Shown here: in pieces, positions 28,985 to 44,819 of the stretch
Layout of the letters: the number at the start of each line of letters is the position of its first letter
Numbering within the stretch: position 1 is the stretch's first letter
Source of the DNA: an uncultured Acidobacteriota bacterium
Lineage (GTDB): Bacteria > Acidobacteriota > Polarisedimenticolia > Polarisedimenticolales > JAIQFR01
Direction: 5' to 3'
Assembly: GCA_937864465.1 (NCBI GenBank)
Contig: CALMJU010000082.1
Location: 41,155-105,154 of the forward strand
Length of the DNA stretch: 64,000 nucleotides
Made by a program: the position numbers and the translations under genes
The notes under the pieces: generated by a model
Seen by the model: the letters and a program-made list of their open reading frames with translations, nothing else
Told to the model about the DNA's origin: nothing
The model's database searches: none

Positions 28985-29491
28985 TCACGACGGGGGCCCG
29001 GCGCCCAGCAGGGCGAGGGCGTCGCGCCGCACCTCGCCGAGGATCTCCGGGTACGCCTCCTCGAGGGCCGGGGACAGGCGCTCCCCGAACGTGGCGTCGT
29101 CCTCCACCTCGACGGCGAAGACGTGGATCTCCTCGTCCGGCGGGAGGGGGTGGCCGAGGCGGCGGCCGAGGGCGAGGGCGGTCGCGAAGTTCACGTCGTG
29201 GACGTTCCGGAGGTTCCGCGTCTCCCGGAGGGAGCCGGCCGTGAACCGGTACCAGTCGCCCGGGCGCCCGCCCCGGGTGCGAACGGAGTCGAAGATGAGG
29301 ACGCGATCGTAGCCGGAGAGCACCTCGATGAGGTTCAGCCCGCCCACCGAGCACTCGGGGACGACCTCGAGTCCCGGGACGCCCTCGAGGTCGCGGGCCA
29401 GGTCGCGGGCGAGACGAACCCCCACGGAGTCGTCCGTGAGGATCGGGTTCCCCATGCCGAGGAGGAGGGTCCGCACGCGGGCGCTCAGCAC
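28985..29491 (-). CDS. [NiFe] hydrogenase maturation endopeptidase (HycI/FrhD/HoxW family)
   Basis: In frame with track ORF 28985..30760. The LLLGMGNPILTDDSVG motif and the conserved DxxH region (VHDVNF) are present. GTG 29491 overlaps the large-subunit stop, and the start is uncertain. Confidence 0.85.
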   Translation of the reverse strand: MLSARVRTLLLGMGNPILTDDSVGVRLARDLARDLEGVPGLEVVPECSVGGLNLIEVLSGYDRVLIFDSVRTRGGRPGDWYRFTAGSLRETRNLRNVHDVNFATALALGRRLGHPLPPDEEIHVFAVEVEDDATFGERLSPALEEAYPEILGEVRRDALALLGAGPPS

Positions 29492-30951
29492 CCCCTCCGG
29501 AACTCCCGGTGGGGCTCGCCCGCCTTGAAGATCCGGACCTCGAGCGGCATCTGGCCGGGGAGGCTGTGCGTCGCGCAGGAGAAGCACGGGTCGAAGGCGC
29601 GGAACGCCATCTCGATCATGTTGAGGATCCCCTGGGTCGGCTCCGCGCCCGGCCGGATCATCGCCTTCGCGACCTTCTTCGTCACCATGTGGATCGCGGC
29701 GTTGTTGTTCGTCGTCCCGACGATCAGGTTCGCGCTCGTGCAGACCCCCTTCTCGTCGCAGGTGTAGTGGTGGGTGAGCGTGCCGCGCATCGCCTCGACG
29801 ATCCCGACGCCCTCGCCGGTGATCCTGTCCGGGACGACGCGGAACGCGTCGCCGGTGATCTCGGGGTCGTCCCGGTACTTCCGCAGCATCTCGGCGTCGA
29901 ACACCATCTCGACGAGGCGGGCCCAGTGCTGGGCGAGCAGCGCGCGGCAGGGCTTCTGCCCCAGTGTCGAGAACATCTCCTCGTACGCCTCCTGCGCCGC
30001 GGGGGTGGCCATCCGGTCGGCCACGTTGAGCCTCGCGAGCGGGGTGGCGCAGTAGATGCTGGAGTCGATCCCCTCGACGAACCCCTTCCAGCCCCTCTTC
30101 TTGAGGTACGGGAACTTCAGGTACGTCCATGGCTCCACGTGCTCGGCGACGTTCTGGGTGTACTCCTCGGGAGCGTACTTGCAGATCTCGTTCCCCTGGA
30201 AGTCCACGACGCGGACCTTCCCGTCGTAGAAGTTCGGCGCGTTGTTCTCGTCCACGAGCCCCATCTGCTGGACGTCCAGCGTGTACGGGCCGTTCAGGAT
30301 CAGGTCGACGTAGGCGGGGTTCCCGAGGACGACGTCCTTGAAGAGCTTCAGGGAGAACTGCGTGAAGTCGTACAGCTCGTCCACCATCGGCCGGATCGCG
30401 TCGAGCTCCTCCTTCTTGATCCCCTTCGACACGCCGCCGGGCAGGCACCACACGAGGTGGGTCGTCCTTCCGCCGACGATCTGCTGGATCTTCTGGGCCT
30501 GGGCCCGCGCCCGCACGACCGCCCCCCCGATCTCGAGACCGACCTTGGCGACGACCCCGAGGACGTTGCGCGTCGCGGGGTCGGAGTCGGGACCGCACAC
30601 GAAGTCGGGGGCGGCGAGGGCGTAGAAGTGCGCGATGTGGCTGTGGATGTAGTGGGCGTGGTAGTAGAGGTCGCGGAGCTTCAGGGCGAGAGGGGCGATC
30701 TGGTGTCCGAAGCAGCCGTCCACCGCCTTGGCGCTCGCCATGTGGTGGCTCGCCGGGCACACGCCGCAGATCCGGGTGACGATCCGGGGCAGCTCCTCGA
30801 TCGGGCGCCCGACGACGAACCGCTCGAACCCGCGGAGCTCGGGGATCTGGAAGTAGCAGTCCTCGACGCCTCCGGCGTCGTCCAGGAAGATCGCGATCTT
30901 GCCGTGCCCCTCGAGCCTCGTGATCGGATCGATGCTGATCTTCTTGGCCAT
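29485..30951 (-). CDS. mvhA: [NiFe] hydrogenase large subunit, group 3c (MvhA-like), copy 1
   Basis: 488 aa from ATG 30951. The N-terminal Ni-binding motif is RICGVCPASH and the C-terminal motif is DPCFSCATH. It is adjacent to MvhG/MvhD/HdrA-like genes. Confidence 0.94.
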   Translation of the reverse strand: MAKKISIDPITRLEGHGKIAIFLDDAGGVEDCYFQIPELRGFERFVVGRPIEELPRIVTRICGVCPASHHMASAKAVDGCFGHQIAPLALKLRDLYYHAHYIHSHIAHFYALAAPDFVCGPDSDPATRNVLGVVAKVGLEIGGAVVRARAQAQKIQQIVGGRTTHLVWCLPGGVSKGIKKEELDAIRPMVDELYDFTQFSLKLFKDVVLGNPAYVDLILNGPYTLDVQQMGLVDENNAPNFYDGKVRVVDFQGNEICKYAPEEYTQNVAEHVEPWTYLKFPYLKKRGWKGFVEGIDSSIYCATPLARLNVADRMATPAAQEAYEEMFSTLGQKPCRALLAQHWARLVEMVFDAEMLRKYRDDPEITGDAFRVVPDRITGEGVGIVEAMRGTLTHHYTCDEKGVCTSANLIVGTTNNNAAIHMVTKKVAKAMIRPGAEPTQGILNMIEMAFRAFDPCFSCATHSLPGQMPLEVRIFKAGEPHREFRRGC

Positions 30952-31913
30952 CAGCGGATGCTCCTCTGCAGAAGGGACGCGGGGAGGCCGAAGCGATAGG
31001 CGTACCCGAGGATGTCCGGAATGTCGCCGAGGATCCTCTCGATCTCGCGCGGGTCCTTGCTGTCCACGATGGACGATACCGCCGAGACGAACTTCGCCCC
31101 CTGGTCGATCACGTTGGGGGCGGGTCCGTAGCAGCCGCGGCAGGGCATGCCGCTGTCGGGGCAGCGGACCCCGCATCCCGAACGGGTGGCGGAGCCCGCG
31201 CACAGGATTCCCTGCTCCATGAGGCACCTGTCCGGGTCCTGGAGGATCTCCCAGGGACGGTGGAACCGCGTGACCTTCTTCTCTTCCTTGCGGCGCCGGC
31301 AGTCGTCGCAGACCGTCCGGTTGGACGCGCCGATGACGCTTCGGGCGGGCGGAAGCGTGCCGTTGACGAGCGCCTGCAACGCCGCCTTGACCTGCTCCGG
31401 GGCCGGCGGGCAGCCGGGCACGTAATAGTCGACGGGGACGACGTCGTCGAGCCTGTAGACCCTGCGGTAGAAGCGCGGGATCTCGAGCTCCCCGGCATCC
31501 ACGCGCGTGGACGGAAGAGGCACCACGCGGTTCCCGGCCTCGATCGAAGGGTTGTCCAGGTAGACCCGCTCGAGGATCTCCTGCTTCGTGACCTGGTTGG
31601 CCAGCCCCGGGATCCCTCCCAGGTGAGCGCAGGAGCCGAGGGCGACGAGGACCTTGCTCTTCCGGCGCAGGAGCTTCGCGAGGTGCTCGTTCTCGCTGTT
31701 GCGGATCGCGCCGTGGAACAGGGTGCAGTCGAGCTCCCCGTCGGCCATCGCCTCCACGTCCCTGTACTTGCCGTCGGCGGCGATCGGCCAGAGCCGGATG
31801 TCGACGAGGAACCCCACGCCGATGACGAACTCGTTCGTGTCCAGGACGGCCACGTCGCAGCCGCCGCAGGCGGCGCCCCAGTAGAGAGCGATCTGAAGCT
31901 TCTTCTCGGGCAT
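30951..31913 (-). CDS. mvhG: [NiFe] hydrogenase small subunit (MvhG-like), copy 1
   Basis: 320 aa with no Tat signal. The proximal-cluster cysteines are GAACGGCDVA and further Cys motifs are GSCAHLGGIPG and PGCPP. Confidence 0.9.
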   Translation of the reverse strand: MPEKKLQIALYWGAACGGCDVAVLDTNEFVIGVGFLVDIRLWPIAADGKYRDVEAMADGELDCTLFHGAIRNSENEHLAKLLRRKSKVLVALGSCAHLGGIPGLANQVTKQEILERVYLDNPSIEAGNRVVPLPSTRVDAGELEIPRFYRRVYRLDDVVPVDYYVPGCPPAPEQVKAALQALVNGTLPPARSVIGASNRTVCDDCRRRKEEKKVTRFHRPWEILQDPDRCLMEQGILCAGSATRSGCGVRCPDSGMPCRGCYGPAPNVIDQGAKFVSAVSSIVDSKDPREIERILGDIPDILGYAYRFGLPASLLQRSIR

Positions 31914-31916
31914 GGC

Positions 31917-32351
31917 CTACCTCTCGACCCGGTCGGCCTCGAGCAGGGTCTTGACCCGGCTCGGCCCCAGGCGGCGAACGCGCTCCGTCATGTCGTCCAC
32001 GATCTCCGCGAACCGCTTCCCCTCGCTGGCGCTGACCCACTCGAGCCGGACCCGGTCCTCCTCGATCCCGTAATCTCGGAGGAGCCGGCCCAGCAGGGGA
32101 AACCGGCGCATCGCCTTGTAGTTCCCCTCGGAGTAGTGGCAGTCGCCCGGGTGGCAGCCGCAGATCAGCACCCCGTCGGCGCCCTCCGCGAGCGCCTTGA
32201 CGACGAAGGTGGGGTCCACGCGGGCCGAGCACATCACGCGGATCACCCGCACGTTCGGCGCGTAGTGGATGCGCGCGGTCCCCGCGAGGTCGGCGCCGGT
32301 GTACGAGCACCAGTTGCAGAGGAACCCGACTATCCTTGGCTCGAAGCCCAT
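31917..32351 (-). CDS. mvhD: MvhD/FlpD-type [2Fe-2S] hydrogenase delta subunit, copy 1
   Basis: ATG 32351 is in frame with track ORF 31917..34109, giving 144 aa. Motifs present are FLCNWCSY, VMCSARV and CGCHPGDCHY. Confidence 0.9.
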   Translation of the reverse strand: MGFEPRIVGFLCNWCSYTGADLAGTARIHYAPNVRVIRVMCSARVDPTFVVKALAEGADGVLICGCHPGDCHYSEGNYKAMRRFPLLGRLLRDYGIEEDRVRLEWVSASEGKRFAEIVDDMTERVRRLGPSRVKTLLEADRVER

Positions 32352-34060
32352 TCCAGCACCCCTTCGATCTGCGAGAAGATCTGTCGGTCGGTGAAATGCC
32401 GCCCCTGGATCGCTCCCGAGGGGCACGCCGCGACGCAGCAGCCGCAGGCCTTGCACACGGCGCTGATGACCCGGCTGCGCTTGGTGGCGGCGTCGTACTC
32501 GATCGCCGCGTAGGGGCAGAGCTCGTTGCACATCCGGCACCCCGAGCAGCGGGTCTCGTCCACCTCCGCGAACACGGCGTCCACCTCGATCTTGCCCCGG
32601 CTGATCTTGCCGAGGATCCTCGCCGCCGCCGCCTCGGCCTGGGCCACCGACCCCGGGATCCCCTTCGGCGCCTGGCAGGTCCCGGCGATGAACACTCCCT
32701 CCGTCGTGGTGGCGACCGGGTCCAGCTTCGGGTGGCTCTCGATGAACCAGCCGTCCTTGTCCTGGCTGATGCTGACGAGGTGGGCGACGTCGGCCGCGTC
32801 CTCCCGCGCCTCCATGCCCACCATGAGGACCACCAGGTCGGCCGGCACCTCGATCTCCTCGCCGGAGAGCACCTCGTGGACCTTGATCAGCATCTCGCAG
32901 TCGTCGTCGGGGCCCGACGGCACGATCTCCGGAGTCGTCCCCTTGGCGTACATCAGGAACATCGTCTTCATCTCGGCGGTGCGCCGGTAGAAGTCCTCGC
33001 ACCCCTTTCCGAAGGCGTGCATGTCGATGTACAGGTCGTAGACGTAGGCCCCCGGCAGGGCGGACTTGATCTCGTGGCCGTACTTCAGCGCGGTCATGCA
33101 GCAGACGCGGGAGCAGTAGCCGTGGTACTCGGGGTTCCGGCTCCCGACGCAGTGGATCATCGCGAAGTACTTCGGCACCCGCCCTCCGCGCGTCAGGATC
33201 CGCCCCTCGCGGAGCATCCGCTCGAGCTCGAACGAGGTGACGACGTTGGGGAGCCTGCCGTACCCGTAATGCTCGATCCTGCGTGCGTCGAACTCCCGGA
33301 AGCCGGTGGCGACGAGAACGCTTCCGACGTCCACGGTCCGCGCGCCGTCCGCCCCGACGCGGATCTCGGCCCGGAAGTTGCCGACGAACCCGGAGAGGGA
33401 CTGCAGGGTCGATCGGAGGAGGACCTCGATTTTCGGGCTCTCGAGGACACGGCGGATCCGGTCGGCGAGCATGTCCCGCGCGGAGTCGAGGTACGGGGCG
33501 GTCAGGTCCACCCGGGCCAGGTTCCCTCCCAGGTGGTCGTCCTTCTCCACGAGGAAGACAGGCTGGCCGGCGTCGGAGAGCTCCAGGGCGGCCGTCAGGC
33601 CCGCGATCCCACCGCCGAGCACGAGCGTGGCCGGGCACATGTCCACGAACCGCTTCTCGAGCGGCTCGTGGTGGACGACGCGCCGGACCGCGGCGTGGGC
33701 CAGGGCGAGGGCCTTGTCGGTCGCCGCGCGGGCGTCGTCGTGGACCCAGCTGCACTGCTCCCGGATGTTCGCCATCTCCAGGAAGTACGGGTTGATCCCG
33801 GCGGTCTGCAGCGCCTTGCGGAACGTCGGCTCGTGCATGCGGGGGCTGCACGCGGCGACGACCACGCGGTCGAGGGAGAGCTCCCGGATGTCCTGGATGA
33901 TCATCTCCTGTCCGGGGTTCGAGCACATGTACTTGTAGGAGCGCGCGACCGCCACGCCCGGCAGCTTCTTCGCGAAATCGGAAACCGCGTCGCAGTCGAC
34001 CACCTTGGCGATGTTCGTGCCGCAGTTGCAGACGTAGACGCCGATCCTCCGGTCTTCCAT
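32330..34060 (-). CDS. hdrA: HdrA-like flavoprotein (QmoB-like core): N-terminal Cys cluster + FAD domain + C-terminal 2x[4Fe-4S], lacks inserted ferredoxin domain
   Basis: 576 aa from ATG 34060 (RBS GGGAGG 5 nt upstream; alternative ATG 34072). Motifs present are GVYVCNCGTNIA, GGGIAGLTAALEL and CSRVCCM. The C-terminus has CSGCRMCNELCP...CKACGCCVAACP. Confidence 0.92.
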   Translation of the reverse strand: MEDRRIGVYVCNCGTNIAKVVDCDAVSDFAKKLPGVAVARSYKYMCSNPGQEMIIQDIRELSLDRVVVAACSPRMHEPTFRKALQTAGINPYFLEMANIREQCSWVHDDARAATDKALALAHAAVRRVVHHEPLEKRFVDMCPATLVLGGGIAGLTAALELSDAGQPVFLVEKDDHLGGNLARVDLTAPYLDSARDMLADRIRRVLESPKIEVLLRSTLQSLSGFVGNFRAEIRVGADGARTVDVGSVLVATGFREFDARRIEHYGYGRLPNVVTSFELERMLREGRILTRGGRVPKYFAMIHCVGSRNPEYHGYCSRVCCMTALKYGHEIKSALPGAYVYDLYIDMHAFGKGCEDFYRRTAEMKTMFLMYAKGTTPEIVPSGPDDDCEMLIKVHEVLSGEEIEVPADLVVLMVGMEAREDAADVAHLVSISQDKDGWFIESHPKLDPVATTTEGVFIAGTCQAPKGIPGSVAQAEAAAARILGKISRGKIEVDAVFAEVDETRCSGCRMCNELCPYAAIEYDAATKRSRVISAVCKACGCCVAACPSGAIQGRHFTDRQIFSQIEGVLEWASSQG

Positions 34061-34071
34061 CGTGCCTCCCA

Positions 34072-35223
34072 TCAGGCCGGCAGCGGGGCGCCCGCGGCGG
34101 CGACCGCACGCTCCCTCTCCCGGATCGCCTCGGCCTGGAGCTCCGAGAAGTACATGGCCAGGGGCCGATAGGCCAGGTGCGCCCACTTGCTGAAGGGGAC
34201 CTCGAGCCCGAGCATCGGCACCACGCCCATCATGTGGACGACGTAGACGACGTTCGCGGCCACGTCCAGGTGGAAGACGCGGTAGAGGACGTTCTGGAGG
34301 ATGCCGGTGCCGGCCACGAACACGAGCAGGATCAGGAAGATCCAGTCGGTCTCGTGGGAGTGCTTGTAATGGGTCTCCTCCTTGCGGATGCGGCCGCGCA
34401 GCGCGTAGATCGAGGTGCCCAGGAGCCCGATCGTCGCGAGGTACCCGAACCCGTGCGCCGCCCACACGGTCCGCTCGCTGTGCATGGCGTGCAGGAAGAA
34501 CATGATGAGGACGAGCATCGTCGTGTAGCTGAGCATGAGGGCGAGGTGGATCGCCCAGGGGCGCTTCTTCCCGCACTCCGCATACCGCTTTTGCGTGAAG
34601 AAGTGGACCGGCAGGAGGAACGCCTGCCGGAGATACGCCAGGGGTGGGATCCGGAGCGTGCGGTCCTTTCCGATGCTGAACCACCACATCCGCGCGCAGT
34701 TGATGCCCAGGAACGCCGCGAGGACGCAGCCCAGGATCCAGTCGAAGACGTGCACCGCCCCGGTCGTCAGAAACGCTCCCTCCCCGGCGTAGACCCCGAG
34801 GTGGCCCCCGCCCCAGCGGAATCCGAACAGCAGGAACCCCGCTCCCGTCAGCAGCGCGACGAGAAGGATGGCCGCGAGCTCGGCCTTCCACGATCGGTAG
34901 AAGAGCTTCGAGATCCCCGTGAAGTCGTAGCGCGACGTGAGCCACCGGCGCATGCTCATCATGGTCTCGCCCGGCTCCGCCTCCCTGGGGCACTCCTCCG
35001 AGCACTCCCCGCAGTAGTAGCAGAGCCAGGGCTCGAGATTCCCGAGCAGCTTCTCCTCGAGCCCCATCTGCAGGTAGCGCATCGACTTCCTCGGGAAGAG
35101 GAACGGCTCCCGCGAGAAGGGGCAGACGGCGCTGCAGTTGCCGCAGTGGTAGCACTTCGCGACGTCCTCCGCGCCGTAGTGCTCCAGCTCCTCGACCAGC
35201 CTGGGATTGGCCCGGATCGCCAT
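34072..35223 (-). CDS. QmoC-like fusion: HdrC-type 2x[4Fe-4S] domain + HdrE/NarI-like polytopic membrane domain
   Basis: 383 aa from ATG 35223. The N-terminus has CYHCGNCSAVCP and CYYCGECSEECP. About six hydrophobic helices with multiple conserved-looking His follow (HVFDW, AIHLAL, HAMH, VVHMMG, WAHLAY). Confidence 0.8.
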   Translation of the reverse strand: MAIRANPRLVEELEHYGAEDVAKCYHCGNCSAVCPFSREPFLFPRKSMRYLQMGLEEKLLGNLEPWLCYYCGECSEECPREAEPGETMMSMRRWLTSRYDFTGISKLFYRSWKAELAAILLVALLTGAGFLLFGFRWGGGHLGVYAGEGAFLTTGAVHVFDWILGCVLAAFLGINCARMWWFSIGKDRTLRIPPLAYLRQAFLLPVHFFTQKRYAECGKKRPWAIHLALMLSYTTMLVLIMFFLHAMHSERTVWAAHGFGYLATIGLLGTSIYALRGRIRKEETHYKHSHETDWIFLILLVFVAGTGILQNVLYRVFHLDVAANVVYVVHMMGVVPMLGLEVPFSKWAHLAYRPLAMYFSELQAEAIRERERAVAAAGAPLPA

Positions 35224-35237
35224 GCCGACTCCCTCCG

Positions 35238-37058
35238 TCACGCCCCCGCGAGGGCCCGTGCGCGAGATTCGATCTCCTCGACCGTCAGGCTCGCGCGCGA
35301 TCCCTGGCCGCGGCCGCTGACCACACTCTTGAGCACGCGGGCGGCGACGGCCGAGGCCTGCGCCACCGCGTCCGGGATGTCCTTCGGTCCCTGGCACACC
35401 CCCGCGACGTGGATCCCGCCGCGCTCGGTGCCCGTCGGGTCGATGTTGTAGTCCGTCTCGCGGAACCATCCGTCCTCGTCCCGGTCGATCCCGAGGATCC
35501 CGGCGAGCCGGTCGGAGGCGCACGCGGGCTCGAGGCCGACCGACAGGAGGACCATGTCCACGGGGAACTCCACGAGACGGTCCTTGAGGATGTCCTCGCC
35601 CTTGATCGTCATGCGGCCGTCCTTCTCGACGACCTTCGCCGAGCGGCCGCGAACGACGAAGACCTCCTCGAGGCGGATCCGCTCGAAGAACTCCTCGTAC
35701 CCCTTTCCGAACGCGCGCATGTCGATGTAGAACTCGTAGCAGACGGCGTCGGGGAGCTTCTCCTTGACCAGGTGGGCGAACTTCAAGGAGTACATGCAGC
35801 AGACCCTGCTGCAGTACGGGTTGTACTTCTTGTCCCGCGAGCCGACGCAGTGGACGATCGCGACGCTTCCGGGCCGGGGGCCCTCGGCGTCGAAGACCCA
35901 CTCGTCCTGCTTCGTGCGCTTGTTGCGCCGGAGCGTCTTCATGACGATCGCGCCGCCCGTCGGTCCGGACGCGTTCGTCAGCCGCTCGAACTCGAGGGCG
36001 GTGAGGACGTTGGGATGGACGCCGTAGCCGTAACGCTCGATCCTCCGGGCGTCGAAGACGTCGTAGCCCGTGGCCACGACGATGCTGCCCACCTCGATCT
36101 CGACCACCTCGTCGCGGTCGTCGAAATGGATCAGCTCCTTCGCGCACTTGCGGAGGCAGGCCCCGCACTTCTTGCCGCCGCTCAGGATGTACGTGCAGGC
36201 GGCGGCGTCGACCAGGTACGCGTTGGGCACCGCCTGGGGGAACGGCATGTAGATCGCCTTGCGCGTCGTGATCCCGCCGTCGAACTCGCTCGGGACCGCG
36301 ACGGGGCAGACCTCCATGCAGGCGTGGCACGCCACGCACGCGTCCGGGTCCACGAAGCGCGCCTTCTTCAGGACCTTCACGCGGTAGGCCCCCGGCTCCC
36401 CGGCGACGTCCTGCACCTCCGCGTAGGTCATCAGGTCGATCTTCTCGTGCTGCCCCACGGCCACCATCTTCGGCGTGAGGATGCAGGCCGCGCAGTCGAG
36501 CGTGGGGAACGTCTTGTCGAACATCGCCATGTGGCCGCCGATGGTGCCGGTCTTCTCGACGAGGTACACCTTCTGGCCCGCGTCGGCGATCTCGAGGGCC
36601 GCCTGGATGCCGGCCACCCCTCCGCCGATGACGAGCGTGGCCGGGTTCACCGCCGTGGGCCGGGGCGATGCCGCGAGGCCGAAGGGGACCCCGTGCACCG
36701 CGCAGGCGACGACGGCCTTCGCCCTCTCGGTGCCGTCGTCGGCGCCGGCCCCGTGCTGGCGGAACGAGGCGAGACGCACCTCCGTCGGCTCGCCGCCTGC
36801 GAGGGCGACGGCCCGGGTGAACGCCGGCTTGAAGTGACCGGGGGAATCGCCGGCCACGACGACGACCTTGAGGTCCCTCTTCTTGATCTCGTGAGCCAGG
36901 ACCTCCGGGTCCGGCGCGGGCCGCGGGGAGCGGACCTCGACGTGCGCGACACCGGGGAGCCCGCGCGCGTACTCCGCGACGGCGTCCCAGTCCACGGGCA
37001 TGGGAAGGGCCGCCTCCTTCTGGCAGAAGTAGACTCCGATCTTCTTCGGGACGCCCAT
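35238..37058 (-). CDS. HdrA-like flavoprotein (QmoA-like): degenerate N-terminal domain + FAD domain + inserted ferredoxin domain, no C-terminal ferredoxin
   Basis: 606 aa from ATG 37058. Motifs present are GGGVAGIQAALEI, FPTLDCAACILTPK, CSRVCCM and the inserted CVACHACMEVCP...CGACLRKC. The N-terminus reads IGVYFCQKE instead of the CxCGxN cluster motif. It ends after the FAD domain. Confidence 0.88.
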   Translation of the reverse strand: MGVPKKIGVYFCQKEAALPMPVDWDAVAEYARGLPGVAHVEVRSPRPAPDPEVLAHEIKKRDLKVVVVAGDSPGHFKPAFTRAVALAGGEPTEVRLASFRQHGAGADDGTERAKAVVACAVHGVPFGLAASPRPTAVNPATLVIGGGVAGIQAALEIADAGQKVYLVEKTGTIGGHMAMFDKTFPTLDCAACILTPKMVAVGQHEKIDLMTYAEVQDVAGEPGAYRVKVLKKARFVDPDACVACHACMEVCPVAVPSEFDGGITTRKAIYMPFPQAVPNAYLVDAAACTYILSGGKKCGACLRKCAKELIHFDDRDEVVEIEVGSIVVATGYDVFDARRIERYGYGVHPNVLTALEFERLTNASGPTGGAIVMKTLRRNKRTKQDEWVFDAEGPRPGSVAIVHCVGSRDKKYNPYCSRVCCMYSLKFAHLVKEKLPDAVCYEFYIDMRAFGKGYEEFFERIRLEEVFVVRGRSAKVVEKDGRMTIKGEDILKDRLVEFPVDMVLLSVGLEPACASDRLAGILGIDRDEDGWFRETDYNIDPTGTERGGIHVAGVCQGPKDIPDAVAQASAVAARVLKSVVSGRGQGSRASLTVEEIESRARALAGA

Positions 37059-37080
37059 GGGTCTAGACTCCGCTCCTCGG

Positions 37081-37909: not shown

Positions 37910-37923
37910 GGCGGCAGGGAGCG

Positions 37924-38409
37924 TCAGCGTCCCGCGGAGGCCGCGAGCCAGTCGTCGAGGATCCCGGCGGCGGCCTCGACGAACCGGGGCATCGCCGAGG
38001 CGACCGCGGGGGAGAGCGCCTCGCGAATCGTGAAGGGGTCCTCGACCTCGATCGACAGCACGCGCAGTTCCCCCGGCATCTCGGATCCGAGGCGGCGGCC
38101 GAGCGCGAGCACCTCGGGGAGCCCGGCGTAGTGCGGGGACGGAGCCAGGACGCCGCGGAAGGATTCCGGAGCCATCTCACGTACCGTTCCGGGGGGGAAC
38201 GCCCCGGAGCGGATCGAATCGAGGATCAGGACGCGACGGCGTCCCTCGATCAGCTCGAGAAGCGCTAGCCCGGCCTCGCCCGACTCGACGATCGCCACGC
38301 GGTCCCGGTACCGGGAGGCGAGAGTCCGGGCGGCGAGGGGCCCGGCCGCGTCGTCGCCCAGCAGGTCGTTGCCGAGGGCGAGCACCAGATCCGCCGGGCC
38401 TCGCGTCAC
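37924..38409 (-). CDS. [NiFe] hydrogenase maturation endopeptidase, copy 2
   Basis: GTG 38409 forms a GTGA overlap with the large-subunit stop, giving 161 aa. The motif LALGNDLLGDDAAG and the conserved SPH region are present. Confidence 0.85.
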   Translation of the reverse strand: MTRGPADLVLALGNDLLGDDAAGPLAARTLASRYRDRVAIVESGEAGLALLELIEGRRRVLILDSIRSGAFPPGTVREMAPESFRGVLAPSPHYAGLPEVLALGRRLGSEMPGELRVLSIEVEDPFTIREALSPAVASAMPRFVEAAAGILDDWLAASAGR

Positions 38410-39869
38410 CGGCGGATCTCGTCGATCACGCGGCCGGCCCGGTCCAGGATCCGGAGGACGAGCGGCACCTGGCCCGGCAGCGAGTGCGTGGCGCAGCCGT
38501 GGCAGGGGTCGTAGGCGCGGAACGCCATCTCGACGCGGTTCAGGAGGCCCTCCCGCACCTCCCCGCCGCGGATCATCTCCTTGGCCGCCTTCTCGACCCC
38601 CATGGCCATCCGCGCGGAGTTGCCCTGGGTGGCGACGATCAGGTTCGCGCGGACGATCCGTCCGTCCCCGTCGGTCTCGTAGTGGTGAAAGAGCGTCCCT
38701 CGCGGCGCCTCGACGGCACCCACGCCGACCCGGGGCACGGCGGTCGGGAGATTCCGAAGATCCGCTCCCGCGATCTCCGGGTCCGCGAGCAGGTCCCGGA
38801 TCCTCTCCGCCGCTTGCACCATCTCGACGACGCGCGCCCAGTGGTTGGCGAGCGTGTAGTGGACCGGCTTCGGGCCGAGGGCCGCGTAGAGCTCGTCGTG
38901 AGCCGCCTGCGCCTCCTCGGTCGCCATCCCTTCGGAAGCGTTGAGGCGGGCCATCGGGGCGACGGAGTACACGCCGCTGTCCCGGCCGTCCACGAACCCC
39001 TTCCAGCCGACCGGCTTCAGGTAGCAGAACTTGACGTAGCTCCACGGCTCCACGTGCTCGGCGACGAAATCGAGGTAGCGGTGAGCGGGGAACTTCGCGT
39101 ACTCGCTTCCCTCGGGGTCGACCACCCGCAGATCGCCGTCGTAGAAGTCCACGCGGTTCCTCGCGTCGACCATTCCCATCGAGTAGGTGCGGTGCGTGTA
39201 TGCCTCGGCGGTGATCATCCTGAGGTAGGCGTCGTTTCCGAGAACGAGATCGCGGAAGACCCGGAGCGTGAAGCGGGCGAAGTCCACGGCTTCGTCGGCG
39301 AGCGCGCGGAATGCGGGGAGATCCTCGGGAGAGACCCCCTTCGCCACGCCGCCGGGGAGCCCGAGCACGGGGTGGATCGCCTTGCCGCCGATCCGGCCGA
39401 TCAGCTCCCGGAGCCGCCGCCGCATCGAGATCACGCGGCGCCCCGCGTCGGCGCCGACCTTGGCGATGACGCCGGAGACGTTGCGGAGCGAGGGGGGCGC
39501 GTCCGGCCCGACGATGAAGTCGGGACCGCCGAGGACGTAGACGTGCAGCGCATGGTCCTCGAGCATGAAGGCGTTGTATACGAGCTCGCGGACCTTTCGC
39601 GCCGTCGGCGTGGGCTCCACCGAGTACAGGGCGTCGAGCGCCTTGGTCGCGGCCATGTGGTGCGCCGTCGGGCAGACCCCGCAGATGCGGCTCGTGATCT
39701 GCGGCATGTCCTCCGCCGGGCGGCCGACGCTGAACACCTCGAACCCGCGCAGCTCGGGAACCTGGAAAAAGGCGCGCTCGACGTCCCCTCGCTCGTCCAG
39801 GAAGATGTCGATCTTTCCGTGTCCCTCGAGCCTCGTGATCGGGTCCACCGTGATTCTTCGCGTGTCCAT
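38406..39869 (-). CDS. mvhA: [NiFe] hydrogenase large subunit, group 3c (MvhA-like), copy 2
   Basis: 487 aa with the motifs RICGVCPTAH and DPCHGCATH. It is collinear with copy 1 along its full length by eye. Confidence 0.94.
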   Translation of the reverse strand: MDTRRITVDPITRLEGHGKIDIFLDERGDVERAFFQVPELRGFEVFSVGRPAEDMPQITSRICGVCPTAHHMAATKALDALYSVEPTPTARKVRELVYNAFMLEDHALHVYVLGGPDFIVGPDAPPSLRNVSGVIAKVGADAGRRVISMRRRLRELIGRIGGKAIHPVLGLPGGVAKGVSPEDLPAFRALADEAVDFARFTLRVFRDLVLGNDAYLRMITAEAYTHRTYSMGMVDARNRVDFYDGDLRVVDPEGSEYAKFPAHRYLDFVAEHVEPWSYVKFCYLKPVGWKGFVDGRDSGVYSVAPMARLNASEGMATEEAQAAHDELYAALGPKPVHYTLANHWARVVEMVQAAERIRDLLADPEIAGADLRNLPTAVPRVGVGAVEAPRGTLFHHYETDGDGRIVRANLIVATQGNSARMAMGVEKAAKEMIRGGEVREGLLNRVEMAFRAYDPCHGCATHSLPGQVPLVLRILDRAGRVIDEIRR

Positions 39870-39909
39870 CCGAACCTCGATCGCCGCCGCGGGGCGGCCG
39901 GAGGGCGCG

Positions 39910-40902
39910 TCAGCGGGCCTCTCGGGGATCGACCGGGAGGCCGGCCTTCCTCCTGAGGATCGAGCGCGCGAGACCGTAGCGGTAGAACGTCCCGATCGGG
40001 TCGGGAATCCCGTCGAGGACCCGGTCGATGGCGGCGTCGTCCGTGGGCTCGACCGACGAGGCGATCGCGGAGAGCGCCTTCGCGCCCTGGTCGCGCGCCC
40101 GCGACGTCGGCCCGAAGCATCCGGTGCACGGCATGTTCCCGCCGATGCAGGGCGCCTCGCAGCCGCCGCGCGTGGCGGGCCCCATGCAGACGATCCCCTG
40201 CGCGAGGAAGCACGTCGCGGGGTCGAGCGCCACGCGATGCGGGCGCCGGAACTCCTGGTAGGAGAGATCCGTCGGCTTCGAGTCCTTCCGGGGGCACGAC
40301 TCGCAGAGCGCGACGTCGGGGGCCAGGACCGATCCTCGTGGCGGCAGGGTCCCGGCGAGCAGCGCCCGGACGGCCTCGCCGAGGAGCTTCGGGGTCGGCG
40401 GGCAGCCCGGAAGGGAGTAGTCCACCGGCACCAGCTGATCGAGGGAGCGGACGACGTTGTGGAGGTCGGGCAACGTCACGCGGAAGCCGCCCTCGCGGTG
40501 GTCGGACCGCGGGCGGACCCCCTCGGCGTTGTTCGTCGAGGGGGAGTCGTCGTACACCCCGCGCAGGATCTCCTCCCTGGAGAACTGGTTCGCGAGGCCG
40601 GGGATGCCGCCCTGGTGCGCGCAGGAGCCGTAGGCGATGAGGATCCGGCTCTTCCTCCTCAGGAGCCGCGCCATCTCCTCGTGCTCGGAGGTCCGGATCG
40701 CGCCGTTCAGGAACGTCGCCGTGATCGACCCGTCGGCGAGCGATTCGACGTCCTTCTTCTTGAAGTCCATCGCCACCGGCCAGAGCACGAACTCGACGGC
40801 GTCGAGGAGTCCGAGGATCCCCTCGGCGAGGTCCACGGCCGATTCCTCGCATCCGCCGCAGGAGGCGCACCAGTAGAAGGCGATCTTCGGCTTCTCAGGC
40901 AT
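39910..40902 (-). CDS. mvhG: [NiFe] hydrogenase small subunit (MvhG-like), copy 2
   Basis: 330 aa with CASCGGCEES, GSCAHQGGIPG and PGCPP. There is no Tat signal. Confidence 0.9.
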   Translation of the reverse strand: MPEKPKIAFYWCASCGGCEESAVDLAEGILGLLDAVEFVLWPVAMDFKKKDVESLADGSITATFLNGAIRTSEHEEMARLLRRKSRILIAYGSCAHQGGIPGLANQFSREEILRGVYDDSPSTNNAEGVRPRSDHREGGFRVTLPDLHNVVRSLDQLVPVDYSLPGCPPTPKLLGEAVRALLAGTLPPRGSVLAPDVALCESCPRKDSKPTDLSYQEFRRPHRVALDPATCFLAQGIVCMGPATRGGCEAPCIGGNMPCTGCFGPTSRARDQGAKALSAIASSVEPTDDAAIDRVLDGIPDPIGTFYRYGLARSILRRKAGLPVDPREAR

Positions 40903-41347
40903 GGGCGGAGACCTCCTCGTCCCACTCGGCGGCGCGGCCGGGCAGGTCCAGGGGACCGAGCCTGCGGACCTCCTCGACCATCTCGTTGACGACTCGCCGC
41001 ACCTTCTCCCCCTCGGCTGCGGAGATCCACTCGAGGCGGCAGCGCGCCTCCTCGATCCCCATCTCCCGGAGCACCCGGCGGATCATCCGGAATCGCCGGA
41101 GGGCCTTGTAATTCCCCTCGATGTAGTGGCAGTCGCCGGGGTGGCATCCGCCGATGAGCACGCCGTCGGCGCCGCGGGCGAACGCGTCGTAGACGAACTG
41201 CGGGTCCATCCGGCCCGAGCACATGACGCGCACGACGCGGGTGTTGGGCGCGTACTTCATCCGGGACACGCCCGCGAGGTCGGCGGCCGTGTAGGTGCAC
41301 CAGTTGCAGAAGAACGCCACGATCCGCGGTTCCCAGGGTTCAGGCAT
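40895..41347 (-). CDS. mvhD: MvhD/FlpD-type delta subunit, copy 2
   Basis: 150 aa with FFCNWCTY, VMCSGRM and GGCHPGDCHY. Confidence 0.9.
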   Translation of the reverse strand: MPEPWEPRIVAFFCNWCTYTAADLAGVSRMKYAPNTRVVRVMCSGRMDPQFVYDAFARGADGVLIGGCHPGDCHYIEGNYKALRRFRMIRRVLREMGIEEARCRLEWISAAEGEKVRRVVNEMVEEVRRLGPLDLPGRAAEWDEEVSAHA

Positions 41348-43331
41348 GGACGAGGACCCCCTCGATCTCGCCGAAGATCTGATCGTCTTCGAACAGGTTC
41401 TGTCGAATCGCGCCGGAAGGGCAGGCGGCGACGCAGGTCCCGCACCCCTTGCACAGTGCCCCGTTGACGGCGGCCTTGCCGCGCTCCCGATCGTGCGAGA
41501 TCGCGGTGTAGGGACAGAGCGCGACGCAGGTCTTGCATCCCGAGCAGGCCTCGTCGACGACGCATGCCGTGTTCGGCTCCAGCTCGACGCGGCCCGCGTC
41601 GACGAGCGCGAGAGCCGCGGCGGCGGCGGCTCCCGCCTGCGCCACCGTGTCGGGGATGTCCTTCGGCCCCTGGCAGCAGCCGGCGAGGAAGATCCCCTCG
41701 GTGAAGGTCTCGACGGGAGCGAGCTTGGGGTGCCGCTCCATGAAGAAACCCTCGTTGGAGCATCCGATGTTGAGGACTCGCCTCACCTCCTGCGCGTCGT
41801 GGGCGGGCTCGAGGCCCACGGCGAGCACGACCATGTCCACAGGGATGCGGCGGACGAAGCCCGCGAGGGTGTCCTCGACGCGGATGACGAGCCTTCCCTC
41901 CTCCTCCGGAGTCATGGTCCAGTCCGTGATCTCCGCCACGCGTCCGCGGATGAAGTTGACGCCTTCCTCCCGGAGCCTGTCGAAGAACTCCTCGTATCCC
42001 TTCCCGGCCGCGCGGATGTCGATGTAGAAGTTGTAGACCTGGGCCCCCGTGTGCTCCTTGAGGAGGTGCGCGAGCTTGAGGGAGTACATGCAGCAGACGC
42101 GGGAGCACCAGCGGTTGGTCTTCTGGTCGCGGGAGCCGACGCAGTGGATGATCCCGATCGATCGCGGTGTCGATCCGTTCTTGAGCCGCACCTCTCCGAG
42201 CGTCGGGCCGGAGGAGTTGACCATTCTCTCGACCTGCAGGGAGGTGTAGACGTCGTCGTAGACCCCGAGGCCGTACTGCGGGATCCGCGCGGCGTCGAAG
42301 GTCTCGAAGCCGGTCGCGACGACGATCGCGCCCACCTCGATCTCCCGGATCTCCTCCTTCTGGTCGAAGACGATCGCGTCCCGGTCGCAGGCCTCGACGC
42401 AGGTGCTCTTGCACTTTCCGGTCTTGACGCGGATGCAGCTCGCGGGGTCGACGACGACCACCTGGGGCGTGGCCTGGGGGAACGGGATGTAGATCGGCTT
42501 GCGCTTCCCGAGCCCCGCGTTGAACTCGTCGGGGACGCGCCCTTCCTTGTACACGCAGGCGTCGATGCACTCCAGGCAGCCCACGCAGAGGTCCTCGCGG
42601 ACATACCGCGGGCGGCGGCGGACGACGACCTTGAAGTTGCCGACGTACCCGGAGACGCTCGTCACGTCCGAGTAGGTCCAGAGCGTGATGTTGGGATGGG
42701 CCTTCACGGAGGACATCTTCGGCGTGAGAATGCACGCGGCGCAGTCCAGGGTCGGGAAGGTCTTGTCGAACCTCGCCATGTGCCCGCCGATCGTGGGCTC
42801 CCGCTCGACGAGGTAGACCCTCTTGCCGGCGTCGGCCAGCGTGAGCGCGGCGTGAATGCCGGCGATCCCTCCCCCGACGACGAGCACGTCGGGGTGCACG
42901 GGGACCTCGGTCTTCTCGAGGGCCCTGTGGAAGCGGACCCTGCGCACCGCGGCGCGGACGAGGTCCACGGCCTTCTCGGTGGCGGCGTCGGCGTCCTCGT
43001 GCACCCAGGAGTCGTGCTCGCGAAGGTTGACCATCTGGAAGAAATACGGATTCAGGCCGCCGCGCTCCGTGGCCTTCCGGAAGGTCTCCTCGTGCAGCAG
43101 GGGAGAGCAGGACGCGACGACGATCCGGTTCAGCGCGTGCTCCCGGATGTCCTGCTGGATCATCTCCTGCCCCGGGTCGGAGCACATGTACTTGGAGTCG
43201 CGGGACACGACGACTCCCGGGAGGAGCGCGGCGGCCTCGGCGACGGCCGCGACCCGGACCTTCCCCGCGATGTTCGATCCGCAGTGGCAGACGTAGACCC
43301 CGATCCTGGGTTCGTCGGCACGGTGTTCCAC
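41340..43331 (-). CDS. hdrA: Heterodisulfide reductase subunit A (full-length architecture)
   Basis: 663 aa from GTG 43331 (the RBS AAGGAGG lies upstream). Motifs present are GVYVCHCGSNIAG, GGGIAGIHAAL, the inserted ferredoxin CVGCLECIDAC...CKSTCVEAC, CSRVCCM, and the C-terminal CSGCKTCVALCP...CKGCGTCVAACP. Confidence 0.93.
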   Translation of the reverse strand: MEHRADEPRIGVYVCHCGSNIAGKVRVAAVAEAAALLPGVVVSRDSKYMCSDPGQEMIQQDIREHALNRIVVASCSPLLHEETFRKATERGGLNPYFFQMVNLREHDSWVHEDADAATEKAVDLVRAAVRRVRFHRALEKTEVPVHPDVLVVGGGIAGIHAALTLADAGKRVYLVEREPTIGGHMARFDKTFPTLDCAACILTPKMSSVKAHPNITLWTYSDVTSVSGYVGNFKVVVRRRPRYVREDLCVGCLECIDACVYKEGRVPDEFNAGLGKRKPIYIPFPQATPQVVVVDPASCIRVKTGKCKSTCVEACDRDAIVFDQKEEIREIEVGAIVVATGFETFDAARIPQYGLGVYDDVYTSLQVERMVNSSGPTLGEVRLKNGSTPRSIGIIHCVGSRDQKTNRWCSRVCCMYSLKLAHLLKEHTGAQVYNFYIDIRAAGKGYEEFFDRLREEGVNFIRGRVAEITDWTMTPEEEGRLVIRVEDTLAGFVRRIPVDMVVLAVGLEPAHDAQEVRRVLNIGCSNEGFFMERHPKLAPVETFTEGIFLAGCCQGPKDIPDTVAQAGAAAAAALALVDAGRVELEPNTACVVDEACSGCKTCVALCPYTAISHDRERGKAAVNGALCKGCGTCVAACPSGAIRQNLFEDDQIFGEIEGVLVHA

Positions 43332-43353
43332 GAAGCTCCTCTCCTCCTTCGCC

Positions 43354-44232
43354 CTAGCCCGCCGTGGCGAGGCTGCGCGAAGCGAGCGCGGCGTGCGCCG
43401 AGACGATGTTGCGGTGGAGACCCAGCGACTTCTCCGAGTGCCCGAAGGCGAGGCCGAGAAGCTGCGTGAAGTAGACCGTCGGGACGGAGACCTTCTCGCA
43501 GGTCCGGGCGATCTTGTCCTGGTACGAGTCGAGATTGAAATGGCAGAGCGGGCACAGCGTGGCGATGACATCGGCGCCCCGCTTCTTGGCCTCTCGGATC
43601 AGGAACCACGCGAGACGCACGCCGACGTCGGGCTGCGTGCCGGTGAGGCTCCCGCCGCAGCACTTGGTCTTGAGGGGATAGCGGACGACCTTGGCCCCCG
43701 CCGCCTCCAGCAGCCGGTCCATGAGCACCGGGTAGGTCTGGTGATCGAAGGTGGAGTACGGCCGGACGACCTGGCAGCCGTAGTACGGCGCCACGGCGAG
43801 CCCGTCGAGGGGGCGCTTCACCTTCGCCCGAACGGCGTCGAGGCCGACGTCGTTGACGAGCACGTCCAGGGGATGGCGGACACGGACGTTCCCCTCGTAC
43901 CGGAGCCCCGCGGCCTGAAGCCCCCGCCGCACGCGCTCGTCGAGATGGGGGTGGTTCCGGATGTACCGCTTGGTCTTCTCCAGAACGAGATAGCAGGCGG
44001 CGCAGGGCGCGACGAGGTCCATGCGGAGCGGCTCGGCGAGCGCGAGGTTCCGCGCCGCGAGCGCGAATGCCGCGGAGTTGTGCACGGAGCTGTAGGAGGT
44101 GGCCCCGCAGCAGTTCCAGTCCTCGATCTCGTGGAGCTCCACGCCGAGCGTCCGGAAGACCGAGAGGAGGGACTCCTCGTACGCCTTTCCGGTTCCCTTG
44201 AGAGAGCAGCCGGGGTAGTACGCGTATCTCAT
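43354..44232 (-). CDS. hdrB: Heterodisulfide reductase subunit B (two CCG domains)
   Basis: 292 aa from ATG 44232. The CCG motifs are WNCCGATS and TKCCGGSL, with partner cysteines PCAACY and LCPLCH. Confidence 0.92.
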   Translation of the reverse strand: MRYAYYPGCSLKGTGKAYEESLLSVFRTLGVELHEIEDWNCCGATSYSSVHNSAAFALAARNLALAEPLRMDLVAPCAACYLVLEKTKRYIRNHPHLDERVRRGLQAAGLRYEGNVRVRHPLDVLVNDVGLDAVRAKVKRPLDGLAVAPYYGCQVVRPYSTFDHQTYPVLMDRLLEAAGAKVVRYPLKTKCCGGSLTGTQPDVGVRLAWFLIREAKKRGADVIATLCPLCHFNLDSYQDKIARTCEKVSVPTVYFTQLLGLAFGHSEKSLGLHRNIVSAHAALASRSLATAG

Positions 44233-44819
44233 TTCGCCATCCCTTTCTCGGCCTCGGCGGCCTCGAGGAGCCGCTGCAGCTCCCGCGTTTGGCGGATGGA
44301 GTCCGCCCGGAACGACATCCGGCCGGTGCGGAGCAGGTTGAGGCCGAGGCGGGCCATGCCCAGGATCTTGAGGATGTTCGTGCGCCAGAACAGGCGAATG
44401 ACGAGCCAGCTCTCCGTCGAGCGGCCGCGCTTGAGGACGAGCTTGTAGAACTCCTGGGCGAGGACGGGGATGGAGAAGCCCTTCGGGTAGACCTTCTCCC
44501 GGATCGCCCTCTGCTTGAGCGCGTACATGATGTTCGTGATCTGGATCTCCTTGGGGCACTCGACGGTGCAGGCGTAGCAGGAGGTGCAGAGCCAGATCGT
44601 CTGGCATCGCAGCGCCTCGTCCTTGAAGCCCGATCGGGTCAAGGCGATGACGCGGCGCGGCGTGTAGTCCATGAACGTGCTGACGAGGCACGCCGCGGAG
44701 CAGGTGCCGCACTGGAAGCAGCTCGGCAGGTTCTCGCACCCCGGGATCGCGGCGATCTCGCGGGCGAAGTTGGGGTCGCGTTCCGCCTCGTACTTGATCG
44801 TCTGCCGGACCGGTTTCAT
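44229..44819 (-). CDS. hdrC: Heterodisulfide reductase subunit C (2x[4Fe-4S])
   Basis: 196 aa with CFQCGTCSAACL and CTSCYACTVECP. It is joined to hdrB by an ATGA overlap. The RBS GGGAGGAG lies upstream. Confidence 0.9.
   Translation of the reverse strand: MKPVRQTIKYEAERDPNFAREIAAIPGCENLPSCFQCGTCSAACLVSTFMDYTPRRVIALTRSGFKDEALRCQTIWLCTSCYACTVECPKEIQITNIMYALKQRAIREKVYPKGFSIPVLAQEFYKLVLKRGRSTESWLVIRLFWRTNILKILGMARLGLNLLRTGRMSFRADSIRQTRELQRLLEAAEAEKGMAK

Follow-up and report, generated by a model that had tools for sequence, protein, structure and literature searches.

The window, meaning the whole stretch analysed here, comprises 64,000 nucleotides of an uncultured Acidobacteriota bacterium (assembly GCA_937864465.1, contig CALMJU010000082.1, positions 41,155 to 105,154) and contains a minus-strand operon in which two HdrA paralogs, HdrA-1 and HdrA-2, carry complementary sets of accessory iron-sulfur (FeS) clusters. 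The two hdrA genes are parted by a single gene for a QmoC-like membrane protein and are followed by genes for an Mvh-type [NiFe]-hydrogenase. From the observed domain and cysteine content, operon structure and conservation we infer dimerisation, the place of the bifurcating flavin, the substrates and the direction of the reaction; HdrA-1 and HdrA-2 are probably the two non-identical halves of one HdrA dimer, housed in a membrane-anchored MvhAG-MvhD-HdrA1/HdrA2-QmoC complex that would bifurcate electrons from H2. The high-potential partner is the QmoC-like quinone module, not HdrBC. The genes of this operon, and the features of their products, are:

35238..37058, minus strand: HdrA-2, 'core-type' HdrA paralog, 606 amino acids (alignment to 5odc, profiles, cysteine census, AlphaFold2 model and Foldseek)
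36669..37058, minus strand: HdrA-2 N-terminal domain, about residues 1-130 (alignment, cysteine census, AlphaFold2)
36477..36500, minus strand: HdrA-2 LDCAACIL, equivalent of 5odc Cys194/Cys197 (alignment, cysteine census)
36144..36338, minus strand: cysteine motifs of the HdrA-2 inserted ferredoxin domain, CVACHACMEVCP ... CTYILSGGKKCGACLRKC (alignment, cysteine census)
34072..35223, minus strand: QmoC-like subunit, 383 amino acids (NF038018, domain profiles, conserved cysteines and histidines)
32330..34060, minus strand: HdrA-1, 'arm-type' HdrA paralog, 576 amino acids (alignment to 5odc, profiles, cysteine census)
33299..33382, minus strand: HdrA-1 deletion junction, GNFRAEIRVGADGARTVDVGSVLVATGF (alignment)
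32420..32548, minus strand: cysteine motifs of the HdrA-1 C-terminal ferredoxin, CSGCRMCNELCP and CKACGCCVAACP (alignment, cysteine census)
31917..32351, minus strand: MvhD, 144 amino acids, FlpD domain, [2Fe-2S] adaptor (PF02662, E value 4e-55)
30951..31913, minus strand: MvhG-like [NiFe]-hydrogenase small subunit, 320 amino acids (profiles)
29485..30951, minus strand: MvhA-like [NiFe]-hydrogenase large subunit, 488 amino acids (VhuA, E value 8.6e-111; metal-site motifs)
28985..29482, start approximate, minus strand: HycI-type hydrogenase maturation protease (profiles)
28563-28934, minus strand: hypA, nickel insertion, at the end of the cluster with hypB
27776-28561, minus strand: hypB, nickel insertion, closing the cluster

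Given that the window has a GC content of 70%, lists of open reading frames (ORFs) are rich in artefacts; genes were set by a third-position GC frame plot together with the translations, from which two minus-strand operons emerged in this region. Family assignments were made by Pfam and NCBIfam profile searches. The frame plot marks long antisense ORFs, such as that at 32336-34171 on the plus strand, as artefacts of the base composition. A sequence-only reading of the window had placed three HdrA-like proteins in it, at 32330-34060, 35238-37058 and 41340-43331, and translation confirmed all three as intact minus-strand ORFs, referred to as HdrA-1, HdrA-2 and HdrA-3 respectively.

The gene order of the split-HdrA operon is hdrA2-qmoC-hdrA1-mvhD-mvhG-mvhA-hycI, followed by hypA and hypB, with one mvhD and one qmoC for the HdrA pair. 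Throughout, genes either overlap or are separated by gaps of 11-14 nucleotides, mvhD starting 22 nucleotides inside the end of hdrA-1, an arrangement typical of a single translationally coupled operon. No HdrB (CCG domains) is encoded in this operon, HdrB and HdrC being found only in the neighbouring one, and its HdrC-like domain is supplied by the QmoC-like protein. The hydrogenase shows the features of group 3c (Mvh-type) enzymes, namely the large-subunit motifs, a small subunit, MvhD (FlpD) and a HycI protease. The metal-site motifs of the MvhA-like large subunit, RICGVCPASHH and DPCFSCATH, are intact. Matches to VhuA (E value 8.6e-111), VhuG (1.1e-63) and VhuD (7e-39) all fall under the exception or equivalog cut-offs of these models.

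To describe what each paralog retains, the methanogen HdrA structure 5odc (M. thermolithotrophicus) is used as the reference. HdrA-3 matches the solved methanogen HdrA structures over its whole length (8rvu, E value 2e-216; 5odc, 6e-213) and is the only one of the three with the full accessory set of N-terminal cluster cysteines, Cys194/197, and inserted and C-terminal ferredoxins; except for Cys194/197, the sequence-only reading had listed these parts for it. HdrA-1 aligns to residues 1-235 and 319-650 of 5odc, an 8-residue bridge standing in place of the 83-residue inserted ferredoxin. It has the four N-terminal cluster cysteines Cys11, Cys13, Cys46 and Cys71, the flavin adenine dinucleotide (FAD) motif GGGIAG, the four-cysteine cluster motif and a C-terminal 2x[4Fe-4S] ferredoxin, and lacks the LDCxxC pair (Cys194/Cys197 of 5odc), having LDSARDML at that position. 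HdrA-2 aligns to residues 5-567 of 5odc and ends 25 residues past the flavin domain, with no C-terminal ferredoxin. It carries the FAD motif GGGVAG, the cysteine pair Cys189/Cys192 in LDCAACIL, the inserted 2x[4Fe-4S] ferredoxin domain and the four-cysteine cluster motif. Its N-terminal domain is present with three of the four cluster cysteines lost (VYFCQKE, VRSPRPAPDP and VAGDSP), and this domain forms a confident beta-alpha-beta fold in an AlphaFold2 model of HdrA-2 (mean predicted local distance difference test score, pLDDT, 84.4), for which the best structural match is 5odc_A (Foldseek E value 1.4e-58). The sequence-only reading had described the ferredoxin losses and the degenerate N-terminal motif correctly; it had also allowed that the missing domains might be present in diverged form, and the alignments to solved HdrA and the structure model show that these parts are truly absent.

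Both paralogs keep the GxGxxG FAD motif and the CxGSR...CSRVCC four-cysteine cluster (HCVGSR...CSRVCCM). Thus the proposal that the two copies had undergone complementary domain loss stands for the accessory clusters, which alone are divided, and does not extend to the flavin core and four-cysteine cluster, which are duplicated. The loss of Cys194/197 from HdrA-1 and the intervening QmoC-like gene had also been overlooked. The duplicated flavin domains are not equally preserved, HdrA-2 retaining 91 of the 112 columns invariant in canonical HdrA and HdrA-1 63 of the 112, with the losses in HdrA-1 lying around the cysteine-pair loop, the GGH and SGPT motifs and elsewhere. All three window HdrA score under the NCBIfam HdrA cut-off of 1100 bits (599, 561 and 859 bits).

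Several smaller differences between the paralogs were recorded. HdrA-2 has an insertion of about 17 residues after SGPTGG, LRRNKRTKQDEWVFDAEG (window 35880-35933; residues 376-393), that is found neither in canonical HdrA nor in HdrA-1; its core, EWVF, is at least 90% conserved in 66 homologues, and the insertion may contact QmoC or HdrA-1. In HdrA-1 a 5-residue deletion (window 33191-33229) removes the canonical NASGPT motif, and HdrA-2 has DYNI for the canonical HPKL (window 35436-35456), which HdrA-1 keeps; both changes are conserved in orthologues. The sole segment of the HdrA-2 AlphaFold2 monomer with a pLDDT below 50 is the DKTFPTLDC loop bearing the cysteine pair (residues 181-189, window about 36492-36518), which would fit a loop ordered only by a partner or a cluster.

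Relatives of the operon were collected by scanning one genome per species with the QmoC alignment, which gave 210 relatives, and the best 80 of these were retrieved. Synteny was counted from alignment coordinates in the 70 loci that had enough flanking DNA. In 68 of the 70, qmoC is flanked by an HdrA-2 type gene immediately upstream and one of HdrA-1 type immediately downstream; the remaining two, actinomycete loci L079 and L084, carry a different and equally complementary pair, and none of the 70 has one paralog alone. All six genes are present in 56 of 64 loci. For HdrA-2 itself there are at least 120 homologue clusters (600-617 amino acids, 68-80% identity), and three homologues checked in their own contigs lie in the same operon. 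The retrieved best 80 of the 210 relatives are all metagenome-assembled genomes (MAGs). By the depositors' labels, carriers span more than ten phyla, with soil and peat Acidobacteriota and Thermoleophilia prominent. The Acidobacteriota include Terriglobia, Vicinamibacterales, Thermoanaerobaculia, Holophagae and Aminicenantes; the Actinomycetota are mostly Thermoleophilia and Gaiellales; and the 'Deltaproteobacteria' (Myxococcota/Desulfobacterota) are Anaeromyxobacteraceae, Polyangiaceae and Geobacteraceae. Further carriers are Eisenbacteria, Krumholzibacteriota, Sumerlaeota, Latescibacterota, Pirellulales (Planctomycetota), Leptospirales (Spirochaetota) and Bdellovibrionales.

Within this set, a census of the cluster cysteines found all 70 orthologous HdrA-1/HdrA-2 pairs (100%) to be complementary, distributed as follows:

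N-terminal cluster cysteines, four positions: 100% each in HdrA-1 orthologues; 74%, 0, 0 and 0 in HdrA-2 orthologues
Cys194/197 pair: 0/70 in HdrA-1 orthologues; 70/70 in HdrA-2 orthologues
Eight inserted-ferredoxin cysteines: deleted in 70/70 HdrA-1 orthologues; present in 70/70 HdrA-2 orthologues
Eight C-terminal ferredoxin cysteines: present in 70/70 HdrA-1 orthologues; absent in 70/70 HdrA-2 orthologues
Four-cysteine cluster: present in all HdrA-1 orthologues (70/70) and all HdrA-2 orthologues (70/70)

Because the split pattern is invariant in 70 orthologous pairs, it is not due to chance. The refuting case named by the sequence-only reading, a single paralog in an otherwise intact operon, was thus seen in none of the 70 loci. 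At L079 and L084, an arm-type HdrA (about 38% identity) and a 980-amino-acid HdrL-like protein stand beside an orthologous QmoC. The HdrL-like protein has an NfnB/GltD-like insertion within its inserted ferredoxin domain, and the pair follows the same rule of cysteine complementarity, which is independent support for it. Two apparent exceptions to the gene structure were rejected. An HdrA-1::MvhD fusion with a split N-terminal domain in L004 (13005-15162), QmoB-like in the gene calls, proved on translation to be a frameshift error in a long-read MAG, and the split or 'fused' HdrA-1/MvhD gene calls of L031, likewise on a long-read MAG contig, are frameshift artefacts and not QmoB-like fusions.

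The QmoC-like protein combines an HdrC-like 2x[4Fe-4S] domain at its N terminus with a membrane domain of several helices in which histidines are conserved. It matches NF038018 (qmoC) over the full profile (5-360 of 360) with an E value of 7.6e-52 and a score of 177 bits against a cut-off of 300. Across 81 QmoC orthologs, conservation is 100% at the eight FeS cysteines and at least 98% at seven histidines within or close to hydrophobic segments, as expected for an HdrC/HdrE-type quinone-interacting subunit of Qmo (PMC3333476). The membrane domain is accordingly described as a putative di-haem, quinone-interacting cytochrome b.

The case for a heterodimer draws on how clusters are shared across the dimer interface in methanogens. 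In the methanogen HdrA dimer, one protomer contributes Cys197 as a ligand to the N-terminal [4Fe-4S] cluster of the other, and electrons that leave the flavin by the low-potential route pass this cluster on their way to the inserted ferredoxin domain (Chadwick et al. 2022, PMC9012536). A 2026 cryo-electron microscopy (cryo-EM) study likewise places the N-terminal cluster, A3, on the low-potential path, with the Cys/Sec197 pair (Sec, selenocysteine) between A3 and FAD (PMC13518236). Under either structural reading, the cysteine pair and the A3 ligands act together, and here they never occur on the same polypeptide. If Cys197 completes the cluster of the partner, an HdrA-1 homodimer could not complete its N-terminal cluster, given that the pair is found in HdrA-2 and is lacking in HdrA-1. 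More broadly, a homodimer of HdrA-1 would have arms, with neither the cysteine pair nor a low-potential exit, and a homodimer of HdrA-2 would have exits and no arm to take electrons from MvhD, so that only HdrA-1:HdrA-2 would form one complete chain. Since this single chain of input, flavin and output would need both polypeptides, the pair would be the symmetric (HdrA)2 core in half-of-sites form, as an obligate heterodimer. The presence of one mvhD and one qmoC for each pair fits a one-armed complex. Heterodimerisation of HdrA-1 and HdrA-2, with the replacement of the homodimer suggested by the sequence-only reading, is in this way supported by strong comparative inference from the 70 complementary pairs and their synteny. 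The same reading had further expected electrons to be routed in a different geometry, of which there is no indication, since the homodimer has two symmetric routes and the parts of the pair make up one of them.

In the proposed complex, HdrA-1 would act as the 'arm', contributing the C-terminal ferredoxin and N-terminal [4Fe-4S] domains that, with MvhD, make up the mobile input arm of methanogen Hdr. HdrA-2 would be the 'core', with the canonical flavin site, the Cys194/Cys197 pair, the four-cysteine cluster and, as low-potential exit, the inserted ferredoxin domain. The better preservation of its flavin domain (91 against 63 of the 112 invariant columns) suggests that HdrA-2 holds the bifurcating flavin and that HdrA-1 serves mainly as input arm and scaffold. 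H2 would be oxidised by MvhAG, and the electrons would travel by MvhD and the arm of HdrA-1 to the flavin of HdrA-2, where bifurcation would take place, with the Cys194/Cys197 pair of HdrA-2 completing, or relaying to, the N-terminal cluster of HdrA-1. The high-potential branch would lead from the four-cysteine cluster through the FeS clusters and b haems of QmoC to menaquinone, and the low-potential branch from the N-terminal (A3) cluster by way of the inserted ferredoxin domain to ferredoxin. The overall reaction may be reversible. In some related loci the hydrogenase is swapped for another module and the core of HdrA-1 type, HdrA-2 type, QmoC and MvhD stays constant, as listed here:

L035 (13349-16179) and L047: molybdopterin oxidoreductase, Fdh-like, in place of hydrogenase
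L083 (11788-14043): FocA formate transporter and FeS protein in place of hydrogenase
L061 (4753-8094) and L075 (4674-7943): MvhD, Fer4_22 protein and FAD/NAD-binding NAD(P)H-type set, read as Flx-like
L079 (4743-9759) and L084: HdrL-like HdrA with NfnB/GltD insertion

Swapping of the donor around a constant core, as occurs in methanogen Hdr, favours a bifurcating core over a plain electron wire. As a tentative proposal, the operon may represent a membrane-bound electron-bifurcating hydrogenase that is widespread, occurring in about 210 species-level genomes from more than 10 bacterial phyla, and has so far gone unstudied; its obligately asymmetric HdrA1/HdrA2 core would couple H2 oxidation to the reduction of menaquinone and ferredoxin, or the reverse.

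Complementary HdrA pairs have precedents. Tandem HdrAs of anaerobic methanotrophic archaea (ANME; HdrA5/6 and 12/13) and fused ones (HdrA3/4; Moorella thermoacetica MetFV-HdrABC-MvhD) have complementary contents of N-terminal cluster, Cys197 and C-terminal ferredoxin, and symmetry-breaking HdrA heterodimers were proposed for them (Chadwick et al. 2022, PMC9012536). The pairs described here resemble them in being encoded by adjacent genes of one cluster, in having the N-terminal cluster and Cys197 on separate copies and in the complementarity of the C-terminal ferredoxin (70/70 pairs). They differ in that the hosts are bacteria of many phyla, the copy with Cys197 retains the N-terminal domain in cysteine-less form instead of losing it, the inserted ferredoxin is also partitioned, and the partner is a QmoC-type membrane subunit with a complete Mvh hydrogenase, not HdrBC, HdrD or FdhAB. 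The bacterial pair therefore obeys the rule of Chadwick et al. 2022 and is a new and widely distributed bacterial case of a type of HdrA pair already described, though hypothetical so far.

The same parts list was reported for the archaeal 'Mvh-Qmo-Hdr' cluster of Ca. Methanoglobus nevadensis and hypatiae (Archaeoglobi), comprising MvhAGD, two HdrA and an HdrC-QmoC cytochrome b protein (bioRxiv 10.1101/2022.12.01.518715; 10.1101/2023.09.08.556235). The cluster is highly transcribed, and bifurcation of electrons from H2, with menaquinone and ferredoxin as acceptors, was put forward as its function (Buessecker et al. 2022; Lynes et al. 2024). The likeness drawn here is in parts list and bifurcation hypothesis; the host there is archaeal, and the portions available do not report complementarity of the HdrA domains. 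Relative to the canonical methanogen MvhAGD-HdrABC (5ODC, 7BKB, 8RVU; Wagner et al. 2017; PMC13518236), the HdrA fold (42% identity), FeS motifs and MvhD/MvhG/MvhA input module are the same. However, canonical HdrA is full-length and forms a homodimer with two symmetric electron routes, joined by HdrBC as disulfide-reducing module, whereas here two half-equipped paralogs stand in for the homodimer and a QmoC quinone module for HdrBC. No description of a bacterial hdrA-qmoC-hdrA-mvhDGA operon was found in the searchable literature, where the archaeal cluster alone is described, and a bioRxiv survey of HdrA evolution mentions neither Qmo nor heterodimers. Methanogen HdrA and one HdrA-like protein of a sulfur oxidiser were the only hits of PDB sequence searches with HdrA-1 and HdrA-2 and of Foldseek with the HdrA-2 model, and no solved complementary pair was among them.

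Several points weigh against the heterodimeric bifurcating complex. The QmoC-like protein falls short of the NCBIfam qmoC cut-off (177 against 300 bits), and it is from the conserved histidines and nothing further that its haem binding is surmised. The cryo-EM study has residue 197 in a Cys-Sec bridge, not as a cluster ligand, and itself calls the role of the pair unresolved (PMC13518236). HdrA-1, by keeping the FAD motif and four-cysteine cluster, retains a second, non-canonical flavin site, and the gene neighbourhood points to neither a ferredoxin partner nor a physiological direction. The last point bears on whether the same heterodimer runs in reverse, as a confurcating, H2-evolving enzyme in which reduced ferredoxin and menaquinol drive proton reduction for the disposal of fermentative reductant. 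Most carriers belong to facultative or fermentative lineages of soil and sediment for which MAGs are the only record, Qmo was first proposed to act by confurcation (PMC3333476), flavin-based bifurcation is reversible in principle, and the canonical Mvh-HdrABC encoded next door could serve H2 uptake. Menaquinol (about -75 mV) would nevertheless be a poor co-reductant for H2 formation unless H2 is very low, and characterised group 3c Mvh enzymes are uptake enzymes; the sequence does not tell the direction of the reaction, and we regard the reverse mode as unlikely. Less readily still would we accept a non-bifurcating, cytoplasm-facing H2:quinone oxidoreductase, in which the HdrA pair is an electron wire and the inserted ferredoxin a structural leftover or internal relay. 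That no ferredoxin gene is linked to the operon and that the HdrA-1 flavin domain is strongly diverged would suit such an enzyme, but none of the 70 HdrA-2 orthologues, whatever its phylum, departs from the eight inserted-ferredoxin cysteines, the cysteine pair or the canonical flavin-site residues, which argues for a functional third branch. Moreover, the NfnB/GltD-like NAD(P)H module of L079 and L084 sits exactly at the inserted ferredoxin domain, marking this position as a third substrate port.

Separate complexes or homodimers of HdrA-1 and HdrA-2, co-located for co-regulation only, are very improbable. Each protein is a plausible flavoprotein alone, given the FAD motif and four-cysteine cluster in both, but the homodimers would lack the parts noted above (cysteine pair and low-potential exit for HdrA-1, MvhD-docking arm for HdrA-2), single-paralog loci number 0/70 with one mvhD and one qmoC per pair, and published fused HdrA-HdrA proteins show the same complementarity within a single chain (PMC9012536). 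A further comparison is with QmoABC of sulfate reducers, purified as a membrane complex in which QmoC (HdrC-like FeS and HdrE-like cytochrome b) is joined by two HdrA-related flavoproteins that differ from each other; it provides an experimental precedent for two HdrA paralogs and QmoC in one complex (Pires et al. 2003; Ramos et al. 2012, PMC3333476). An 'alternative Qmo' has A and B subunits that are both HdrA-like (Chernyh et al. 2020, as cited in PMC8477390), and a hydrogenase was suggested as a possible third partner of a Qmo-type complex (PMC3333476, PMC8477390). That the operon encodes a genuine QmoABC serving adenosine phosphosulfate (APS) reductase in dissimilatory sulfur metabolism is nonetheless barely credible, even though it has two HdrA-like subunits with a QmoC-like one and DiSCo is reported to call one such Archaeoglobi HdrA copy QmoB. 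Qmo serves APS reductase and is linked to aprBA/sat, and the window ORFs that were scanned contain no Apr, Sat or Dsr domain. QmoB carries a fused C-terminal MvhD-like domain, whereas this operon encodes its own separate MvhD together with a hydrogenase, which lies in the same cluster in 56/64 loci, and its QmoC is below the equivalog threshold.

For the membrane-anchored heterodimer preferred here, the principle is not new, as the heterodimer idea has been published for the ANME and Moorella HdrA pairs, and that of H2 electrons passing to menaquinone plus ferredoxin for archaeal relatives. What is added is that the rule is shown quantitatively and across phyla, and with it the partition of both the inserted ferredoxin and the cysteine pair; the gain lies in breadth, quantitative support and a bacterial target. 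If correct, many non-methanogenic soil and sediment bacteria would have a means of generating low-potential ferredoxin from H2, paid for by quinone reduction, or of venting electrons as H2, and hydrogen turnover would be tied directly to the respiratory chain. The pair would also be a natural 'half-of-sites' HdrA in which each accessory cofactor occurs once, on a defined chain, free of the symmetry that makes methanogen Hdr harder to study by spectroscopy and mutagenesis. Which protomer is the input arm and which holds the bifurcating flavin, and the role of the Cys194/Cys(Sec)197 pair, become testable, and the split of the A3 cluster and Cys194/197 onto separate polypeptides would show that both act across the dimer interface.

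Immediately upstream of the split-HdrA operon lies a complete canonical hdrC-hdrB-hdrA3-mvhD-mvhG-mvhA-hycI operon (37924..44819, minus strand), so that a symmetric soluble-type system and an asymmetric membrane-type one are neighbours in this genome, and each comes with a hydrogenase and a protease of its own. Its genes, and a regulator between the two operons, are:

44229-44819, minus strand: hdrC (profiles)
43354-44232, minus strand: hdrB (profiles)
41340-43331, minus strand: hdrA-3, 663 amino acids (end-to-end alignment to methanogen HdrA)
40895-41347, minus strand: mvhD (profiles)
39910-40902, minus strand: mvhG (profiles)
38406-39869, minus strand: mvhA (profiles)
37924-38421, minus strand: hycI (profiles)
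37478-37909, plus strand: receiver-only response regulator, 143 amino acids, divergent, between the two hydrogenase operons

The canonical operon also adjoins the split-HdrA operon in L001 and L012 and is divergent from it in several Thermoleophilia loci (L025, L030, L039, L042). The response regulator recurs in a 99%-identical contig, L085, and is absent in L001. A scan of 27000-45500 for promoters and terminators gave nothing over the shuffled expectation. With regard to maturation, hypA and hypB are the only hyp genes to follow the split-HdrA operon, and none of the others was found among the annotated ORFs of the window; in L004, genes with HypF and HypD domains lie just downstream, with a HupF/HypC domain on the same product as HypF. 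The remainder of the window is housekeeping, with unrelated type II secretion (T2SS) or type IV pilus genes (T2SSF, T2SSE with an MshEN domain, secretin and a second T2SSE ATPase) at 1291-9742 and 50434-51936.

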